From IMG/VR virus record IMGVR_UViG_2531839529_000011: a stretch of DNA of 14,431 bases. One strand, written 5' to 3'. Of the stretch, positions 3,558 through 12,426 are shown piece after piece; within the stretch, counting starts at the first letter, position 1; each line of letters opens with the position of its first letter. A program made the translations under genes and the position numbers. This DNA is from a virus. Taxonomy: Duplodnaviria; Heunggongvirae; Uroviricota; Caudoviricetes. The notes below the pieces were generated by a model. That model saw only the letters and a program-made list of their open reading frames with translations. It had not been told where the DNA came from and searched no databases.

Positions 3558-3773
3558 ATGACATTAAAAACTTATCCTATCACTGGACATGCCCGCCCAC
3601 GAGCTACTGCTGACTTTTTGCAAATAAGTACGGTTACTCTCTGGCGCTGGGAAAAGAACAATCCTGAATTTCCCAAATCTATACGCATTTCAAAACGGGT
3701 ATCTGTTTACGATGCACAAGAAATTAGGCAGTGGGTTAAAGCTCAATCAGCAGGATTGGAGGAAGTAGTGTAA
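3558..3773 (+). CDS. alpA: AlpA-family phage regulatory protein (MerR-like HTH; excision/int regulator)
   Basis: 71-aa ORF with the motif LQISTVTLWRWEKNNPEFPKSIRISKRVSVYDAQEIRQWV, typical of AlpA prophage regulators, in the canonical position downstream of a P4-type int. Confidence 0.85.
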   Translation: MTLKTYPITGHARPRATADFLQISTVTLWRWEKNNPEFPKSIRISKRVSVYDAQEIRQWVKAQSAGLEEVV

Positions 3774-4133: not shown

Positions 4134-4310
4134 ATGGCTAAACAGAAGTGTACCTGGTTATTTGCGGCGATCAACCGCAGTCAACGTAATGCCCGTCCGG
4201 TGATGTTAAGGATCACCGCAGATAACGAACGATCAGCGCGGCGCAGACTTGCCCCGGACTATGTACTGAGCTTTGCCGGGCGCATTCCCTGCGGAGGTGA
4301 ACATGCGTAA
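4134..4310 (+). CDS. Icd-like host cell-division inhibitor (small P4-family early protein)
   Basis: ATG 4134 with SD tgaggt; 58 aa MAKQKCTWLFAAINRSQRNARPVMLRITADNERSARRRLAPDYVLSFAGRIPCGGEHA. The LRITADNERSARR.LAPDY.LSFAGRIP motif matches Icd-like proteins of P4-like prophages as I recall them. The ORF track extends to a GTG at 4080. Confidence 0.55.
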   Translation: MAKQKCTWLFAAINRSQRNARPVMLRITADNERSARRRLAPDYVLSFAGRIPCGGEHA

Positions 4311-4693: not shown

Positions 4694-4978
4694 ATGAATA
4701 TTTCAAACGGGCACAACGGTGCTCAGGGCCACACTTTGCCTGAAAAACACAATACCGGTGCTTTTGCCTATGGGTTGTCAGAGGACAGTTTCGGAAAGCT
4801 GACCCGCGCAAAAAATGCCTGCGACATGCTCCAGCTTCTCTTTTCTGAATACCCGTCTCAGGCCGGAGCACTGGACGCTGGCTGTGCGCATGGTGTCGCC
4901 GCGCTGATGGAGTACCTGCTGGCAGATTTGACGGATATTGCACACAGCTGCGCACTGATTGAAGGAGGTGCCAGATGA
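4694..4978 (+). CDS. Hypothetical protein (primase-operon small ORF 2)
   Basis: ATG 4694 with SD ggag; 94 aa; stop overlaps the next start (ATGA at 4975-4978). Confidence 0.55.
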   Translation: MNISNGHNGAQGHTLPEKHNTGAFAYGLSEDSFGKLTRAKNACDMLQLLFSEYPSQAGALDAGCAHGVAALMEYLLADLTDIAHSCALIEGGAR

Positions 4979-5358
4979 ACCAGCCGCAGGTTTCCATTTT
5001 CCCGGCAGAAATGACCACCGCGCTTTACCGGCGGGCTATTGCTTCAGCATGGCGGCAGAAAATGCTGAACGAAACTGGTAGTGATCAGTATGGTCCGCAC
5101 AGCCTGACGGTGGAGCGTATTGAAATGGCCATTGCGCTGCATATCGAGTGCGTACTGATTAACGAGTACGGCGAAGTGCAGGGCGCCGCTGCCGCGCTGG
5201 CACTGCTGACTGACATGCTGGAGCCATCACTGCTGACCGCGCCGCCGGTACTGACCGCGCGCGGCTGTGAAGTGATGGCGGAGATGTACCGCACGCTTCC
5301 GGCGGCCTTTGATGACTTCTGCAGTACCGGTGTGACGTTGTATGAGGGGGAAGTATGA
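4975..5358 (+). CDS. Hypothetical protein (primase-operon small ORF 3)
   Basis: ATG 4975 with SD GGAGGTG; 127 aa; stop TGA 5356-5358 overlaps ATG 5355 (ATGA coupling to the primase's original start). Confidence 0.55.
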   Translation: MNQPQVSIFPAEMTTALYRRAIASAWRQKMLNETGSDQYGPHSLTVERIEMAIALHIECVLINEYGEVQGAAAALALLTDMLEPSLLTAPPVLTARGCEVMAEMYRTLPAAFDDFCSTGVTLYEGEV

Positions 5359-5420
5359 CAATACAGACGGTTACGCAGATTTCAGCCGCCGCACGGGGGA
5401 AATAGCCCGTTATTCTGCAG

Positions 5421-8027
5421 ATGCTGCGTATTGATGTACCTGAAAACGGCAGGCACGGCCCCTGCCCGAAATGTGGGGGCAAGGATCGTTTTCGCCTTGA
5501 TGACCTTGACGGGCGCGGGACGTGGATCTGCAGCCAGTGTGGCAATGGTGACGGTCTGGATCTGGTTAAGCTCGTAACCGGTTACAGCGTCAGAAAGGCT
5601 GCGCAGGAGGTGGCGCAGGTGCTTAATGTGCCGGATGTGCAGGAACTGCCTGTTAAGCCTGCCAGACAAAAAGCCCCTAAACGCGACATGGGTCTTACCG
5701 TGGCGGCGCTGATGAAAGAGAGCCACACGGGAGAAAGCGCCTATCTGACAGGAAAAGGGTTCGCCGGATACCCGGCCTCTCTGACCGGAAGCGTGCAGCA
5801 TATCAGCGGTAAGGATTTTCCTGCCGGTTCCCTGCTGTTACCACTCACGACCAACACCGGAGCCGTGACCGGTGCACAGCTTATCGCCCCGACGGGTGAA
5901 AAAAGCATACTGCCCGGCAGCACGATGAAAGGCGCGTTTGTGTCGCTCAGCCCGTTACCGTCTGAACCACCGGTACAGGTGGTGATTACCGAAGGTTACG
6001 CTACGGCGCTGACGGTAAGCCAGCTCACTGCCGGATGCGTAGTGGCTGCCATATCTGCGGGCAACCTGCCCAATGTGGCGCAGTCGCTGCGGGCACGCTG
6101 GCCTGAGGTAAAAATTATCATCGCCGGTGATAACGATTTTCAGGACGGGGGGGAGAATCCCGGCAGAGCCTTTGCTGAACGGGCGGCAAAAGCTGTTGGC
6201 GGCTGGATGACGCTGCCACCAGGAGAGATTAAGGCTGACTGGAATGACTTTCATCGGGAGCACGGTATTACCCGTGCCCGTGAAGCCTTTCGCAACGGTC
6301 TGGTACTGTGCGGGGAAGGCCGCACGCAACTGCCGCACGGGTTCCGTCTTACCCAGGAATATCTCTGGTATGAAAAGCAGGTACAGCGCAACGGTGAGAC
6401 GGAGATCCAGAACGTCAAAATATGCAGCCCGCTGCGCGTGACGGCAATCACCTGCGATGCCGATGGCGGTAACTTCGGACGACTGCTGGAATGGGAAGAT
6501 ACGTGGGGTGAGTGTCGCCGCTGGGCGATGCCGATGGAAATGCTGAGCGGCAGTGGTGAGGAACTGCGCCGGGTACTGCTGGTTAACGGGCTGTCTTATA
6601 TCAGCACCACCGGTGAGGCACGCGCACGCCTGATGGAATATATCTCACTGTGTAAACCGGAACGCCGCGTGACCTGCGTCAGTCGTACTGGCTGGCATGG
6701 TCAGGTTTACGTCCTGCAGGATGAGGTCAGCGGTGAAGGTGCAGAGGGTGTCATTCTCCAGACCACTTCCGTGCAGGGGCGTGATTTCCGCGTGTCGGGC
6801 ACAACAGAGGAATGGCGGGAGCATGTATCCCGCTACTGTACCGGCAACTCCCGCGTGGCATTTGCTGTCAGCCTGGCCTTTGCTGCACCACTGTTACGGC
6901 TGGTTGGTATGGACGGCGGCGGCTACCACCTAAAAGGGGAATCGACAGACGGTAAGACCACCACCATGAAAGCGGCAACCTCCGTCTGCGGCGGGCCTGA
7001 CTACTGGCAGACATGGCGGGCCACCGGCAACGCGCTGGAGGGATGCGCCAGCCGCCGCAACGATGCCGCCATGATGCTTGATGAGATCCGGGAAGTTGAC
7101 GGACGCGAGGCAGGCAATATCGCCTACATGCTGGCAAACGGTCAGGGCAAGGGCCGTGCCGGTACGGACGGTGAGCTGCGTACCCGTAAGCAGTGGCGCC
7201 TGTTGTTCTTTTCAACTGGCGAGTTGTCTCTGACCGAACATGCGGCAAAGGCCGGTGAGCGTACTTTTGCCGGGATGGAAGTCAGGATGATCCAGATCCC
7301 AAGCGATTCCGGGAAGTTTGGCGTTTTTGAGGAGCTGCACGGCTTCGACAGCGGCAAGGCTCTGGCAGAGCATCTTGAATGGGCCACGTCCTGCTACTAC
7401 GGTTCGCCGTTCCGGGAGTGGCTGAAAGCACTGACCGCTGATCTTAACGGACTAACGGCACAGGCAAAATCGCTGATGAAGGAATATGCTGCCGCCCTGA
7501 CTCCTAAAGATGCAGGCAATCAGGTGGGCCGGGCTGTGAACCGCTTTGCACTGGTGGCGATGGCAGGTGAACTGGCAACCCGTCTGGGTATCACCGGCTG
7601 GCCTGAGGGTGAAGCACTGCGGGCAACCCGCGTCTGCCTGAACGCATGGCTGAAAGATCGCGGGCACACCGCCAATCAGGAAGATATCGCCGCACTGGAG
7701 CAGGTTCGCAGTTTCTTTACCGCGAATCAGTACAGCCGCTTTGCAGACTGGTATGACGAGCGCAACCGCCCCGGCAATATGGTGGGCTGGCGCAGGGTGG
7801 AGAAAGGCAGTACCGCGCAGGGCACGGAAGCTGTCACTACGTTCTATGTCATGCCGTCCGGCTGGAAAGAAATCTGCAGGGGATTTGACCCGCGTAAGGT
7901 GGCGCGTCTGTGCGCAGATCGTGGATACCTGCTGCCCTCCACTGATGGCAAACTCCAGACAACCATTCGCCCGCCAGAGATGAATCCCCGCAGGCTCTAT
8001 GTCTTCAACAGCGAGGTGCCGGGTTAA
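5421..8027 (+). CDS. P4 alpha-type primase-helicase (zinc-binding primase N-terminus, TOPRIM, D5-like helicase with Walker A, C-terminal iteron-binding region); original N-terminus interrupted by in-frame TAG
   Basis: 868-aa ORF. CPKCGGKDRF...WICSQCGNGDG zinc ribbon; TOPRIM residues VITEGYATAL and IIAGDNDFQDGG; Walker A GESTDGKTT. An ATG at 5355 with strong SD GAGGGGG, coupled to the upstream stop, opens the same frame (MTIQTVTQISAAARGK) but hits TAG at 5403-5405; translation presumably restarts at ATG 5421. Confidence 0.9.
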   Translation: MLRIDVPENGRHGPCPKCGGKDRFRLDDLDGRGTWICSQCGNGDGLDLVKLVTGYSVRKAAQEVAQVLNVPDVQELPVKPARQKAPKRDMGLTVAALMKESHTGESAYLTGKGFAGYPASLTGSVQHISGKDFPAGSLLLPLTTNTGAVTGAQLIAPTGEKSILPGSTMKGAFVSLSPLPSEPPVQVVITEGYATALTVSQLTAGCVVAAISAGNLPNVAQSLRARWPEVKIIIAGDNDFQDGGENPGRAFAERAAKAVGGWMTLPPGEIKADWNDFHREHGITRAREAFRNGLVLCGEGRTQLPHGFRLTQEYLWYEKQVQRNGETEIQNVKICSPLRVTAITCDADGGNFGRLLEWEDTWGECRRWAMPMEMLSGSGEELRRVLLVNGLSYISTTGEARARLMEYISLCKPERRVTCVSRTGWHGQVYVLQDEVSGEGAEGVILQTTSVQGRDFRVSGTTEEWREHVSRYCTGNSRVAFAVSLAFAAPLLRLVGMDGGGYHLKGESTDGKTTTMKAATSVCGGPDYWQTWRATGNALEGCASRRNDAAMMLDEIREVDGREAGNIAYMLANGQGKGRAGTDGELRTRKQWRLLFFSTGELSLTEHAAKAGERTFAGMEVRMIQIPSDSGKFGVFEELHGFDSGKALAEHLEWATSCYYGSPFREWLKALTADLNGLTAQAKSLMKEYAAALTPKDAGNQVGRAVNRFALVAMAGELATRLGITGWPEGEALRATRVCLNAWLKDRGHTANQEDIAALEQVRSFFTANQYSRFADWYDERNRPGNMVGWRRVEKGSTAQGTEAVTTFYVMPSGWKEICRGFDPRKVARLCADRGYLLPSTDGKLQTTIRPPEMNPRRLYVFNSEVPG

Positions 8028-8061
8028 GGCTTTGCGTGAGTCTTATTTATTAAGGGTAACA

Positions 8062-8249
8062 GGTGAAACAGGTGGAACAACCGTATTTTACAGGGCTGAA
8101 CCTGTTCCACCTTCTGAAATAGTGAGGTGGAACAGATGTAACGCCAGCCAATCCGCTGTTCCACCTTGTTACCCGCGATGTTCCACCGGTGCAGTGTATA
8201 TAAATGCTTTATAAAACAAAGCAGTAACACATGTTTCACCTGTTCCACC
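8062..8249. repeat. Iteron array (putative ori/crr-like replication origin): 8 copies of TGTT(C/T)CACC / GGTG(G/A)AACA
   Basis: Copies at 8062-8070, 8071-8079, 8103-8111, 8126-8134, 8157-8165, 8179-8187, 8232-8240 and 8241-8249, in mixed orientation, flanking an AT-rich tract (tgtatataaatgctttataaaacaaa, 8205-8220). Resembles the P4 type I iteron TGTTCACC bound by alpha. Confidence 0.6.
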
Positions 8250-8337
8250 GCATCAGGGACATAAAGCAGACTGAAACAGAGGGTATTTTTATCTGGCTGG
8301 CTTTCATAGCCACGTCTGAATAACCGCAAGCGTCCGT

Positions 8338-8393
8338 TGTGCCAGCCACCACACACTGAGCACCGATAGTGTGCTTGTGTCAGCCACGACACA
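8338..8393 (+). promoter_or_regulatory. Ogr/Delta-dependent late promoter (Psid-like) with two TGT-N12-ACA dyads
   Basis: TGT-N12-ACA at 8338-8355 and 8376-8393, centres 38 bp apart. If the start site is near 8401, they sit at about -55 and -17, as recalled for P4 late promoters. Directly upstream of the sid-like gene (ATG 8428, SD aggag). Confidence 0.5.
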
Positions 8394-8427
8394 ATTGACG
8401 TAACGAACCAACCCGACAGGAGAAGTC

Positions 8428-9171
8428 ATGAACAACACCGCAGTGAATAACAACCTTTCCACTTTTCCGGCTGTAACGCAGCGGGCACTGGAAACCATGA
8501 ACACAGCCAGAAACGCATGGCTTGAAGCACGTCGTCAGCAGAAAGCGGCAGCGGATAATATTGCGACAATCCGCCAGCGTCGCGCTGAAATGGAAGCCAC
8601 GACGAACACACTGAATGAGGAGTGGCGCACGCTGTTTCGTGAAAGTCAGGGCGTGGTCTCAAAGGAAATGAAAAAACTGCGCACGGAAATTGCGCTGGGA
8701 CGAGAAACGCTTGAGGATTTTGATGAGCTGCTGGCGGCTCAGGAAAGCGAAAATGCACTTTTGCCGCAGAAAGCTGCGGAATTAGCCGGAAAGTATATCC
8801 ACGCGCATAACATTCTTGTGGATATTCGCGCAAAACAAATCTGGGAAGATTTTATGCAGTCGCATGGAAAAGCGCTTATTCAGACGCTGAGCCTGCTTAA
8901 ATCCACAATGGGCCGGGAAGCCAGTGCCGTTGTGGGTGTGGTGAATTCAGTTAATGACCCGGACACAGTGCTGAAAGACTTTATTCATAAACATATCACC
9001 AGACCGGCTCTGGCTAACGATGCGATGCCTGAACAGGACCCGGTGTTTAAACTGGCGGGAGTTGCCCCGGATTATGCGGCGCGTCTGGATTTCAGTAATC
9101 AACTCTCTCCGGCAGCTATGCATAAAATAAAGGTTCGTCAGGAACTTGCTGAGAAGGAGAAAGCTGTATGA
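8428..9171 (+). CDS. sid: Sid/Psu-family late protein, most likely external scaffold / capsid-size determination protein Sid
   Basis: 247 aa (P4 Sid is about 244 aa), coiled-coil-rich, first gene behind the Delta-type late promoter. Shares the YI.(A/S)H ... DFMQ.HG.AL motif with Psu-family proteins. Stop overlaps the next start (ATGA 9168-9171). Confidence 0.55.
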   Translation: MNNTAVNNNLSTFPAVTQRALETMNTARNAWLEARRQQKAAADNIATIRQRRAEMEATTNTLNEEWRTLFRESQGVVSKEMKKLRTEIALGRETLEDFDELLAAQESENALLPQKAAELAGKYIHAHNILVDIRAKQIWEDFMQSHGKALIQTLSLLKSTMGREASAVVGVVNSVNDPDTVLKDFIHKHITRPALANDAMPEQDPVFKLAGVAPDYAARLDFSNQLSPAAMHKIKVRQELAEKEKAV

Positions 9172-9293
9172 CGGCCCGAGGCACACCTGACCAGGCACTT
9201 ACCAGTTTTCGGAATGCCCGTATTCTGTGGGCCGGACATAGTGAGACCCGAAAAGCCGTTGAACAACAGATAGCATCTCTCCTCGCTGCGTAA
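9168..9293 (+). pseudogene. psu: psu-like (polarity suppression protein) N-terminal fragment, truncated by the IS66-family insertion
   Basis: ATG 9168 with strong SD aaggag, translationally coupled to sid. Reading frame runs to the IS boundary at 9290 and stops at TAA 9291-9293 inside the IS terminal repeat. Confidence 0.55.
9282..9289. repeat. Left copy of the 8-bp target-site duplication CTCGCTGC flanking the IS66-family element
   Basis: Identical octamer immediately outside both IS ends. Confidence 0.8.
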
Positions 9294-9342
9294 CCGGCTC
9301 ATTTAAACCGTCTGGTCTGTTTCCTCCGGCTCTACAAAAATA

Positions 9343-10020
9343 ATGTCCATCATTTTTAATGGACACTATCGTATGAAACACCGGACCTGGATCACTGAAG
9401 CTTTACGTCTTCACTTTGAAGAACATTTACCCCGGGTTGTGGCCGGGCGTCGCCTGGGTGTACCAAAATCAACAGTTTGTAGTATGTTCGTGCGCTTTCG
9501 GAGAGCTGGCCTTTCGTGGCCTTTGCCCGCAGGCATGTCGGAGCAGGAACTTGATGCCTGCCTTTACGGACAATTTTCCACGGTACCAGTCGTACGTCCT
9601 GAAAGCACCGTTATATCCGAAGCCCCCGTGGTAAAAAAACGTCCCCGGCGGCCCAACTTCCCTTATGAGTTTAAAATCGCCTTAGTGGAGCAGTCACTGC
9701 AGCCCGGAGCCTGTGTGGCGCAGATCGCCCGGGAAAACGGAATCAACGATAACCTGCTCTTCAACTGGCGCCATCAATACCGGAAAGGTGGCCTGCTGCC
9801 TTCCGGAAAAAATATGCCGGCACTGCTTCCCGTGACGTTAACGCCGGAGCCGGATAATAAAATCCCGGCCCCCGCACAGGAACCAGAGCAGATAAATACA
9901 CCGTCCGACAGTCTGTGTTGTGAGCTGGTTCTGCCGGCCGGAACTCTCAGGCTTAAAGGTAAACTGACGCCGGCGTTATTACAGACACTTATCCGCGAAA
10001 TAAAAGGGAGCAGCCACTGA
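9343..10020 (+). CDS. tnpA: IS66-family accessory protein TnpA (orfA; HTH)
   Basis: 225-aa ORF; RRPNFPYEFKIALVEQSLQPGACVAQIARENGINDNLLFNWRHQYRKG is a transposase-type HTH. Start uncertain (ATG 9343 or 9373; neither has a strong SD). Stop TGA overlaps the tnpB start. Confidence 0.7.
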   Translation: MSIIFNGHYRMKHRTWITEALRLHFEEHLPRVVAGRRLGVPKSTVCSMFVRFRRAGLSWPLPAGMSEQELDACLYGQFSTVPVVRPESTVISEAPVVKKRPRRPNFPYEFKIALVEQSLQPGACVAQIARENGINDNLLFNWRHQYRKGGLLPSGKNMPALLPVTLTPEPDNKIPAPAQEPEQINTPSDSLCCELVLPAGTLRLKGKLTPALLQTLIREIKGSSH

Positions 10021-10367
10021 TGATATCTCTCCCTGCAGGTTCGCGTATCTGGCTGGTTGCAGGTATCACCGATATGCGAAATGGCTTTAACGGCCTGGCA
10101 TCAAAAGTTCAGAACGTCCTGAAGGATGACCCGTTCTCCGGACACCTGTTCATCTTCCGCGGACGCCGGGGTGACCAGATAAAAGTGTTGTGGGCTGACA
10201 GTGACGGACTGTGCCTCTTCACCAAACGCCTGGAGCGGGGCCGCTTCGTCTGGCCAGTCACCCGTGACGGCAAGGTGCACCTTACTCCGGCTCAGTTATC
10301 CATGCTTCTTGAAGGTATCAACTGGAAGCACCCGAAACGAACGGAACGCGCTGGAATCCGCATATAA
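10020..10367 (+). CDS. tnpB: IS66-family TnpB (orfB)
   Basis: 115 aa MISLPAGSRIWLVAGITDMRNGFNGLA... recognised as the conserved IS66 orfB product; start overlaps the orfA stop (TGATG). Confidence 0.85.
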   Translation: MISLPAGSRIWLVAGITDMRNGFNGLASKVQNVLKDDPFSGHLFIFRGRRGDQIKVLWADSDGLCLFTKRLERGRFVWPVTRDGKVHLTPAQLSMLLEGINWKHPKRTERAGIRI

Positions 10368-10386
10368 CCCGTTGTAAAGTGAGGAT

Positions 10387-11958
10387 ATGGACACCTCACT
10401 TGCTCATGAGAACGCCCGCCTGCGGGCACTGTTGCAGACGCAACAGGACACCATCCGCCAGATGGCTGAATACAACCGCCTGCTCTCACAGCGGGTGGCG
10501 GCTTATGCTTCCGAAATCAACCGGCTGAAGGCGCTGGTTGCGAAACTGCAACGTATGCAGTTCGGTAAAAGCTCAGAAAAACTTCGTGCAAAAACCGAAC
10601 GGCAGATACAGGAAGCACAGGAGCGAATCAGCGCACTTCAGGAAGAAATGGCGGAAACGCTGGGTGAGCAATATGACCCGGTACTGCCATCCGCCCTGCG
10701 CCAGTCTTCAGCCCGTAAACCGTTACCGGCCTCACTTCCCCGTGAAACCCGGGTTATCCGGCCGGAAGAGGAATGCTGTCCTGCCTGTGGTGGTGAACTC
10801 AGTTCTCTGGGATGTGATGTGTCAGAGCAACTGGAGCTTATCAGCAGCGCCTTTAAGGTTATCGAAACACAACGTCCGAAACAGGCCTGTTGCCGGTGCG
10901 ACCATATCGTGCAGGCACCAGTACCTTCAAAACCCATTGCACGCAGTTATGCCGGAGCGGGGCTTCTGGCCCATGTTGTCACCGGGAAATATGCAGACCA
11001 TCTGCCGTTATACCGCCAGTCAGAAATATACCGTCGTCAGGGAGTGGAGCTGAGCCGTGCCACACTGGGGCGCTGGACAGGTGCTGTTGCTGAACTGCTG
11101 GAGCCGCTGTATGACGTCCTGCGCCAGTATGTGCTGATGCCCGGTAAAGTCCATGCTGATGATATCCCCGTCCTGGTCCAGGAGCCGGGCAGCGGTAAAA
11201 CCCGGACAGCCCGGCTGTGGGTCTACGTCCGTGATGACCGTAACGCCGGTTCACAGATGCCCCCGGCGGTCTGGTTCGCGTACAGTCCGGACCGGAAAGG
11301 TATCCATCCACAAAATCACCTGGCCGGTTACAGCGGTGTGCTTCAGGCCGATGCTTACGGTGGTTACCGGGCGTTATACGAATCCGGCAGAATAACGGAA
11401 GCCGCGTGTATGGCTCATGCCCGGAGAAAAATCCACGATGTGCATGCAAGAGCGCCCACCTACATCACCACGGAAGCCCTGCAGCGTATCGGTGAACTGT
11501 ATGCCATCGAGGCAGAGGTCCGGGGCTGTTCAGCAGAACAGCGTCTGGCGGCAAGAAAAGCCAGAGCCGCGCCACTGATGCAGTCACTGTATGACTGGAT
11601 ACAGCAACAGATGAAAACACTGTCGCGTCACTCAGATACGGCAAAAGCGTTCGCATACCTGCTGAAACAGTGGGATGCACTGAACGTGTACTGCAGTAAT
11701 GGCTGGGTGGAAATCGACAACAACATCGCAGAGAACGCCTTACGGGGAGTGGCCGTAGGCCGGAAAAACTGGATGTTCGCGGGTTCCGACAGCGGTGGTG
11801 AACATGCGGCGGTGTTGTACTCGCTGATCGGCACATGCCGTCTGAACAATGTGGAGCCAGAAAAGTGGCTGCGTTACGTCATTGAACATATCCAGGATTG
11901 GCCGGCAAACCGGGTACGCGATCTGTTGCCCTGGAAAGTTGATCTGAGCTCTCAGTAA
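10387..11958 (+). CDS. tnpC: IS66-family transposase TnpC (orfC)
   Basis: 523 aa with N-terminal leucine-zipper-like coiled coil, CPACGG...CCRC zinc-finger region and the IS66 DDE core. Recognised IS66 transposase family. Confidence 0.9.
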
Positions 11959-11988
11959 ATATCAATACGGTTCTGACGAGTCGCTTAC

Positions 11989-11996
11989 CTCGCTGC
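11989..11996. repeat. Right copy of the 8-bp target-site duplication CTCGCTGC
   Basis: Identical to 9282-9289, immediately after the right IS end (...CGCTTAC at 11988). Confidence 0.8.
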
Positions 11997-12426
11997 CACA
12001 GAAAAACCAACAGATTATGCCCGACAGCTCGAATTACTGCGGGAACGTCTGGATGTGCTGAAATGGCAAATTAACTGTGCTGCTCGCGAATGCATTTACT
12101 CGCAGCATTTATTGATGGAGGCCTGCACTGAAGCTGCTCTCAGCAATTTTATGCAGGCGAATGGGGCAGCCCTGACATCTGCACTGGCTCCGTTCCTGAA
12201 GGGGCGCGGAGGGGTTGACGTTGCGTCCCGTATATTACGCAGTGCTCTGGTTCGCCAGCTGGCAATAACACCGCCTGAAATTGCCGGGGATTATCGTGAG
12301 ATCCTGGATGAATCCGGTTTGATGCCAGACCCCGGGATGATTCGTGATTGCCAGGGCTCTTACACCCCGGCACAACATCTGCGTTTTCAGCAACGCCTGA
12401 ATGACATTAACGATATACAGGAGTGA
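11997..12426 (+). pseudogene. psu: psu-like C-terminal fragment (in frame with 9168-9289 once the IS and one TSD copy are removed)
   Basis: Frame is open from 11998 to TGA 12424-12426; the ORF track finds it from GTG 12055. The joined product is about 183 aa (P4 Psu is about 190 aa) and carries VLKWQINCAAR...FMQANGAALTSALAPFL, matching the Psu signature as I recall it. Confidence 0.55.

Follow-up and report, generated by a model that had tools for sequence, protein, structure and literature searches.

P4-like satellites are widespread, being carried by a large share of Enterobacterales genomes. In P4 itself, the 11 exact copies of the repeat TGTTCACC are confined to two clusters, crr and ori, situated 4.5 kb apart. 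In the SaPIs, the origins consist of 6-12 iterons directly 3' of rep, with an AT-rich region and at least two iterons per side in opposite orientation; the C-terminal winged helix of the SaPI Rep protein reads the iterons, binding and melting are ATP-independent, and the helicase loads itself (PMC9371898). For the E. coli PICI EcCICFT073, rep and ori were both required in plasmid-maintenance assays (PMC6092414). The kind of origin considered here is already known from the SaPIs and PICIs, and the added value of the present data is a natural series of specificity switches. No description of origins of the DUF927 sub-family was found in the searchable literature, and neither 'crr' nor 'origin of replication' occurs in the text of the 2021 survey of P4-like elements (PMC8628076). 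The sequences of the array described here and of its relatives make it most likely that a P4-like satellite starts its vegetative replication at this array, an origin of the iteron type to which the primase-helicase of the adjoining upstream gene would bind.

The window, i.e. the whole stretch of 14,431 nucleotides analysed, is a P4-like satellite integrated at argW in an E. coli chromosome. Its chromosomal neighbours are yfdC and a tRNA-Arg(CCT), and a tRNA was the sole match in an Rfam scan of the window. The element is organised in the order int, alpA, DUF5375, primase-helicase, array, Psid-like promoter, sid, psu (interrupted by an IS66-family element) and delta, with the following features outside the array:

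1209-2543: integrase gene
3558-3773: AlpA-type regulator gene
4975-5358: gene of a DUF5375 protein, homologue of P4 orf106
5355-8027, plus strand: primase-helicase gene, with Zn-ribbon, Toprim, DUF927 helicase and C-terminal winged helix (Pfam PF08273, PF13362, PF06048)
7749-8024, plus strand: region coding for the putative iteron reader, the C-terminal winged-helix domain (aa 777-868, numbered from the ATG at 5421)
8338-8393, plus strand: Psid-like late promoter region with two TGT-N12-ACA boxes (8338-8355 and 8376-8393), which delimits the array
8428-9171, plus strand: sid-like gene, the first late gene past the array (Pfam Psu family; 24% identity to P4 Sid over 226 aa, E 1e-12)
9343-10020: IS66-family ORF
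10020-10367: IS66-family ORF
10387-11958: IS66-family ORF
11988-12426: 3' fragment of psu, downstream of the IS66 insertion

In the core P4-like set used by SatelliteFinder (int, alpA, alpha, sid, psu, delta, epsilon), int, alpA, an alpha-like gene, a sid-like gene, the interrupted psu and Ogr/Delta are present, and epsilon was not identified among the satellite's genes. An intact relative, L002, is annotated as a P4-like satellite with a matching gene set, and the RefSeq annotation of its identical gene agrees with the primase-helicase identity. Just three differences separate the window from L002: two point changes and the insertion in psu of the IS66-family element, which is 2,698 bp long (9290-11987), splits the gene with an apparent 9-bp target duplication and is absent from L002. 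The primase-helicase is 890 aa long in the relatives, and the longest open frame in the window (5421-8027) encodes 868 aa; an amber codon at 5403-5405 (TGG to TAG, Trp17) interrupts the gene at codon 17 and the frame restarts at the ATG at 5421, so that 22 N-terminal residues are missing. This amber codon is absent from all four relatives compared (L002, L032, L003 and L006); WP_000155333 is an example of an intact allele. With the amber codon in its primase gene and IS66 in psu, this copy looks decayed, and the origin may be idle in it since the initiator gene is stopped at codon 17 and psu is split; the origin sequence is intact here, but the element is probably not autonomous. The segment 7800-8500 was found in 341 of 5,426 complete E. 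coli genomes; the places outnumber the records by eight, which indicates that a few of these genomes carry two copies.

The array begins 35 nt past the primase-helicase stop codon and consists, between 8062 and 8249, of six exact copies of TGTTCCACC and two of TGTTTCACC, three on the minus strand and five on the plus strand. Three degenerate copies lie at canonical positions of the family:

8054-8061, minus strand: degenerate copy GGGTAACA, where the first site of the family lies, forming an inverted pair with 8167-8174
8062-8070, minus strand: iteron 1, variant TGTTTCACC, opening the left tandem pair
8071-8079, minus strand: iteron 2, TGTTCCACC, at a 9-bp pitch with iteron 1
8103-8111, plus strand: iteron 3, TGTTCCACC
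8126-8134, minus strand: iteron 4, TGTTCCACC
8135-8143, minus strand: degenerate copy GATGTAACG, a full iteron at that position in L003 and L006
8157-8165, plus strand: iteron 5, TGTTCCACC
8167-8174, plus strand: degenerate copy TGTTACCC, conserved in L006
8179-8187, plus strand: iteron 6, TGTTCCACC
8188-8231: AT-rich gap, proposed DNA-unwinding element, the largest inter-iteron gap (GC 0.33)
8232-8240, plus strand: iteron 7, variant TGTTTCACC, opening the right tandem pair
8241-8249, plus strand: iteron 8, TGTTCCACC, forming with iteron 7 an arm inverted relative to iterons 1-2

The 18-nt terminal arms (8062-8079 and 8232-8249) are thus inverted and 152 nt apart, and the flanking bases lengthen the iteron unit to about 11 nt (cTGTTCCACCt). 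Our scan reproduced all that the preliminary description had reported of the iterons, i.e. their coordinates, the count of eight, the two variants and the mixed orientation. The AT-rich tract around which that description had placed the copies is real, with a GC content of 27.5% at 8200-8239 relative to approximately 55% in the flanks, but it is off-centre, in the gap of about 45 nt between copies 6 and 7, preceded by six sites and followed by two. The inverted pair GGGTAACA / TGTTACCC (8054-8061 and 8167-8174) stays constant from class A to class B (defined below) while the canonical iterons switch. In sequence it is close to the class-C word, and it may be a relic or be used by another factor.

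To quantify the clustering, the window was scanned for TGTTCCACC with up to one mismatch, with 200 dinucleotide shuffles as the control. Ten matches were found, relative to 3.24 +/- 1.91 in the shuffles, none of which (0/200) reached 10. Outside the array only two matches were found, at 1377 and 3920, both isolated and each with one mismatch, and no exact copy of TGTTCCACC exists outside the array in the whole window. Over approximately 0.56 Mb of fetched loci, exact TGTTCCACC is clustered only in class-A arrays (61 copies), with about 10 scattered singletons elsewhere. The equal frequency elsewhere that had been named beforehand as an argument against an origin was not observed. The array was also correctly described as unlike CRISPR: a CRISPR array has regular direct repeats of 24-48 nt and unique spacers, whereas the units here are of 9 nt, on both strands and irregularly spaced by 9-53 nt. 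A plasmid origin of the RepA type, with direct iterons of 17-22 bp and a Rep_3/RepA initiator, was likewise rejected, the units here being of 9-11 nt in mixed orientation; no Rep_3/RepA-type protein was found among the window ORFs scanned.

Downstream, the array ends 89 bp upstream of the first TGT-N12-ACA box. The two boxes, accompanied by a 19-nt direct repeat, have a spacing of 38 bp, and the second one stops 35 bp short of the ATG of the sid-like gene. P4 Psid has the identical geometry, its boxes being located at 9493 and 9531 and the ATG of sid at 9583. From what is known of P4 and P2, we take these boxes to be Ogr/Delta activator sites, and they look like a conserved Ogr/Delta-activated late promoter of the sid-like gene. 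Since the boxes form a separate part of the intergenic region, the array is distinct from the late promoter. No sigma-70 promoter or intrinsic terminator was found in a scan of 7900-8500.

The primase-helicase has more than 800 homologues, and its family is widespread in Enterobacterales; 50 related Enterobacterales loci with enough downstream DNA were retained as the comparison set. An array of 6-13 copies, starting 30-95 nt past the stop codon, was present in 46 of the 50 loci. In three others (L039, L047 and L056), the array is located about 1.1 kb downstream, behind an inserted integrase gene; these loci were considered as array-less exceptions and rejected as such, the array being merely displaced. 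In the same three loci, the second tyrosine-recombinase gene (6595-7602 in L039) overlaps the primase stop codon, and AT-rich cargo, not sid, lies beyond the array. In the remaining locus, L054, which encodes a truncated protein, the array was not found. The 51 arrays tabulated span 181-226 bp and hold 8-13 sites, with <<<><<>><>>> as the modal layout. Facing tandem pairs (<< ... >>) are found at both ends in 39 of them, and the largest gap has a GC content below 0.35 in 36, the low-GC gap being usually near the right end. Position and architecture are conserved in all 51 arrays across Enterobacterales. No second array was found in approximately 8-10 kb around the gene in the relatives, where 0-7 scattered one-mismatch matches were seen.

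The iteron words themselves are lineage-specific and fall into at least nine classes with the common frame TGT...(A/C)C, namely TGTTCCACC (class A, that of the window's element), TGTTACACC (class B, for example in L006), TGTTACCCC, TGTTACCAG, TGTTACCAC, TGTATCCAC, TGTACTACA, TGTTCCCAC and the type of L017. In-register alignment of the arrays is maintained between loci with initiators 91-98% identical and different words, and each site is substituted alike. Between the window and L006, six of the eight sites share a C-to-A change at position 5, which converts TGTTCCACC into TGTTACACC; between L024 and L028, GGTGTAACA is changed into GGGTAACA at each site, and L023 and L025 differ in the same way. 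In these three pairs, the flanks of the switched iterons are still approximately 95-100% identical. Such an in-register concerted change is what is expected if all the copies must match one reader.

In the protein encoded upstream, the N-terminal 300 aa or so are homologous to the Zn-ribbon/Toprim primase of P4 alpha (38% identity over 302 aa, E 2e-44), and for its DUF927 helicase the closest solved relatives by sequence are SaPIbov1 Rep (8TCH) and SCCmec Cch (5DGK). The C-terminal region has a fold like those of SaPIbov1 Rep, Cch and TcpK, a winged helix bound to oriT, with a sequence identity to 8TCH of only 11-14%. Homology of this C-terminal domain to the origin-binding domain of P4 alpha was rejected, the results of BLASTP and hhalign (probability 0.09%) being negative. 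The kinship with the alpha-iteron pair of P4 implied in the preliminary description does not hold at the protein level, the primase alone being P4-like, with a helicase of the DUF927 type and a dissimilar C-terminus.

To determine whether protein and iterons change together, protein pairs at least 88% identical were compared, same-iteron pairs on the one hand and different-iteron pairs on the other. The divergence of aa 777-868 was 0.082 per site when the iterons differed versus 0.026 when they were the same. In the closest switch pairs, aa 777-868 diverge 6-28 fold faster than aa 301-776 (0.056 versus 0.002 for L024/L028 and 0.165 versus 0.009 for L019/L030), the ratio being about 1 in same-iteron pairs; these close-pair comparisons are phylogenetically non-independent, with about six independent switches underlying them. 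The most switch-associated patch, aa ~819-851 (nt ~7878-7973), is a beta-hairpin wing, DGKxQTxIR; relative to the window, the wing residues typical of class B are L838M, P839A, T841V, T848S and P856V. As far as the alignments indicate, the C-terminal winged-helix domain is the only protein region that co-varies with the iterons, a signal which is isolated only by the ratio test on close pairs: the divergence between the window and L006 is not concentrated in the C-terminus and falls mostly in the N-terminal linker, variable in all pairs. No alignment column separating class A from class B across all lineages was found. Position 848 was considered as a single specificity residue and rejected, as it differs in four of five switch pairs but in a same-iteron pair too. 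The protein at the DUF5375 position, a rival binder encoded upstream, was also rejected because it does not track the iteron class: it is 99% identical in L017 and L030, which have different iterons, and 57% identical in L013 and L014, which have the same.

Since the 3' end of the gene is physically linked to the array, recombination may have transferred the two together and so have produced some of the co-variation. In nucleotide scans of three independent pairs, however, two patches of divergence were observed, the array and a patch of the gene at -146..-82 nt from its end that encodes the wing, and better-conserved DNA separates the two in all three pairs. A pure hitch-hiking explanation is weakened by this conserved DNA. 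Taken together, these comparisons support an iteron specificity that would fit pairing with a cognate initiator.

Compared with the SaPIs and PICIs, the array appears on sequence grounds to have every testable defining feature of an initiator-adjacent origin. The window has eight strong and three degenerate short iterons, for an expected 6-12; the array adjoins the initiator ORF, in the window as in 46 of the 50 relatives; the AT region is flanked by at least two opposed iterons per side, the terminal pairs being 8062-8079 (minus) and 8232-8249 (plus); and the primase-helicase is a Rep-type helicase with a C-terminal winged helix. As in SaPI1, SaPIbov1 and SaPI5, the array comes right after the initiator ORF, whose product combines a DUF927/MCM-like AAA+ core with a winged helix at the C-terminus, and as in PriRep5, primase and Rep are fused in one chain. 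Unlike the SaPIs, the element has a Gram-negative host, a late module of the P4 type and a P4-alpha Zn-ribbon/Toprim primase, and its AT tract is off-centre rather than roughly central. Its units are of 9-11 nt versus 5-6 nt in the SaPIs (PMC9371898). The likeness to SCCmec Cch (5DGK), compared at the protein level, lies in the DUF927 AAA+ core and the C-terminal winged-helix region; Cch has no fused primase. EcCICFT073, a Gram-negative PICI of pri-rep-ori organisation, also resides in E. coli; its initiator gene is directly followed on the 3' side by one array only, made of units of the TGTCTACC type and bounded at each end by a tandem pair, the two pairs being inverted (arms of 18 nt with a separation of 190 nt, versus 152 nt here). 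In contrast, its initiator is of the D5_N + DUF5906 + Pox_D5 type, has no Toprim primase and is unrelated to the window protein by BLASTP, and its downstream module is made of capsid/PerC genes instead of sid-psu-delta. A BLASTP match of WKEICRGFDPRKVARLCA to residues 280-297 of the EcCICFT073 protein (18 aa, E 0.005) was set aside as too short to interpret.

With P4, the element has in common int, alpA/vis, the orf106/DUF5375 homologue, sid, psu, delta and the Psid geometry, together with a homologous primase domain (Zn ribbon and Toprim, 38% identity). The array is made of short TGTT..ACC-type units in mixed orientation with AT-rich tracts, as in P4, and its single location is both 3' of the alpha-like gene, the crr position, and 5' of Psid-sid, the ori position. 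The P4 type 1 repeat had been given earlier as TGTTCACC, in agreement with P4's own annotation; the array word is TGTTCCACC, and exact TGTTCACC occurs in the window only at 4296 and 11797, neither of which is in the array. Furthermore, the helicase is DUF927, in contrast to the D5-type SF3 helicase (D5_N/DUF5906) of P4 alpha, the C-terminal domain is not Pox_D5/1KA8-like, one cluster replaces the two of P4, and alpha and sid are collinear, in a PICI-like order, whereas the P4 alpha and sid operons diverge from ori. The array thus lacks three defining features of P4 ori/crr, i.e. the word, the alpha C-terminal domain with its helicase type, and the bipartite layout. The comparison with P4 ori/crr suggested in the preliminary description therefore holds for both positions, but not for the number of clusters, the word or the C-terminal domain, which is dissimilar. 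The task shared out between ori and crr in P4 appears to fall here to a single array. It is unlikely that the P4 split arose from a single array by inversion of the alpA-alpha block: such an inversion with a breakpoint in the array would produce two separate clusters, but there is no simple correspondence between it and the orientation patterns of the iterons. The relatives of P4 alpha are uninformative on this point since all those retrieved are 84-99% identical and all are split.

The proposal that the array is a candidate origin read by the C-terminal part of the 5421-8027 product is strengthened by the conserved architecture, the concerted change, the co-variation, the winged-helix fold and the SaPI/PICI design. 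From these data we infer binding, the melting site, self-loading and origin activity, and the following mechanism can be proposed: (i) the C-terminal winged helix of the adjacent primase-helicase would bind the sites of ~9-11 bp (cTGTTCCACCt); (ii) the tandem pairs at the ends of the array facing each other, hexamers would assemble in opposite orientation; (iii) the AT-rich 8188-8231 segment would melt; (iv) the DUF927 ring, of the SaPI Rep/Cch type, would load itself with no separate loader; and (v) the P4-alpha-like N-terminal Zn-ribbon/Toprim primase would prime synthesis by the host polymerase.

Several other functions could be considered for the array. It could be a crr-like auxiliary cis element, acting in copy-number control or through initiator looping and handcuffing, with initiation at a separate origin. 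This is quite improbable. The array does lie directly 3' of the alpha-like gene, where crr lies in P4, and the relatives of P4 alpha (84-99% identity) all keep two clusters, but it also holds the P4 ori position upstream of Psid, and there is no second cluster in the 14.4-kb window, with its two isolated one-mismatch matches, nor any second array in the ~8-10 kb around the gene in the relatives. Moreover, SaPIs and PICIs with the same initiator architecture use a single gene-adjacent array as the origin (PMC9371898, PMC6092414). The lack of a second cluster makes a crr-only role unlikely.

A purely regulatory function, in which the repeats would be operators for autoregulation or termination of the alpha operon or for gating of the sid promoter, controlled by the primase-helicase or by another regulator of the satellite and with no role in replication, is less probable again. 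There are indeed transcription units on both sides of the array, the first Ogr/Delta box being 89 bp downstream of it, and initiator-bound iterons often double as autoregulatory sites in plasmids. However, the late promoter elements are separate and have the geometry of P4, the array of L039, L047 and L056 is followed by AT-rich cargo instead of sid, and the upstream protein at the DUF5375 position does not track the word, whereas 8-13 sites with an AT-rich gap and inverted terminal pairs are an origin design (PMC9371898). A regulatory side-role alongside replication is possible. That the repeats are arm-type or accessory recombinase sites, att-like or part of a resolution site, is highly improbable: a tyrosine-recombinase gene is immediately upstream of the array in L039, L047 and L056 and P4 attP has short arm repeats, but in the window, as in 46 other loci, approximately 5.5 kb separate the array from int and the tRNA attachment site, integrases have been swapped independently in this satellite family, and the word co-varies with the C-terminus of the primase-helicase. 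As for a chance or non-functional cluster, which the short unit length and nothing more would favor, its probability is practically negligible, as none of the 200 shuffles reached the observed count and the comparative data, with an array conserved in about 50 species-level loci and all its copies changing in concert, refute it.

The interpretation as an origin has several consequences. The origin and the gene (gene plus ~250 bp) would make a minimal replicon for P4-type cosmid or delivery vectors, and the search for an array of 8-13 sites within the first 250 bp past the gene would provide an annotation rule for hundreds of elements. P4-type satellites could run on a SaPI-type initiator, which would blur the divide between P4 and PICIs at the replication module. 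The natural switches, down to a one-base iteron change with a few protein changes, make winged-helix recognition and satellite incompatibility directly testable; in L024 and L028, the class is switched with proteins differing by only 2% overall. We tentatively suggest, as a proposal falling a little short of an even chance, that at least nine mutually orthogonal initiator-origin pairs exist and interconvert by concerted in-register substitution of the iterons together with a few changes in the wing (aa ~819-851). If true, several satellites could replicate independently in one cell, and the series would show in natural variants how a winged helix is re-targeted on DNA.

Three genomes with two elements were noted, in Pantoea stewartii NZ_CP046558 (L003 and L046, classes A and B), P. 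leporis (L012 and L052, classes B and D) and Enterobacter intestinihominis (L013 and L041, classes D and A). The classes differ each time, which fits incompatibility avoidance but is not statistically significant (chance ~0.5). The assembly in which one typical enterobacterial member of the family (L018, 66% identity) was found carries a Firmicute label (record title Vagococcus sp. WN89Y), probably as the result of contamination or mislabelling. Finally, the homologues of L049 (Brenneria corticis) and L050 (Serratia sp. Ag1) match only from residue ~302, having the helicase and winged helix but no Zn-ribbon/Toprim part. Their mutual identity is 79%, and each is accompanied by a 12-site array, of class B in L049 and class A in L050.
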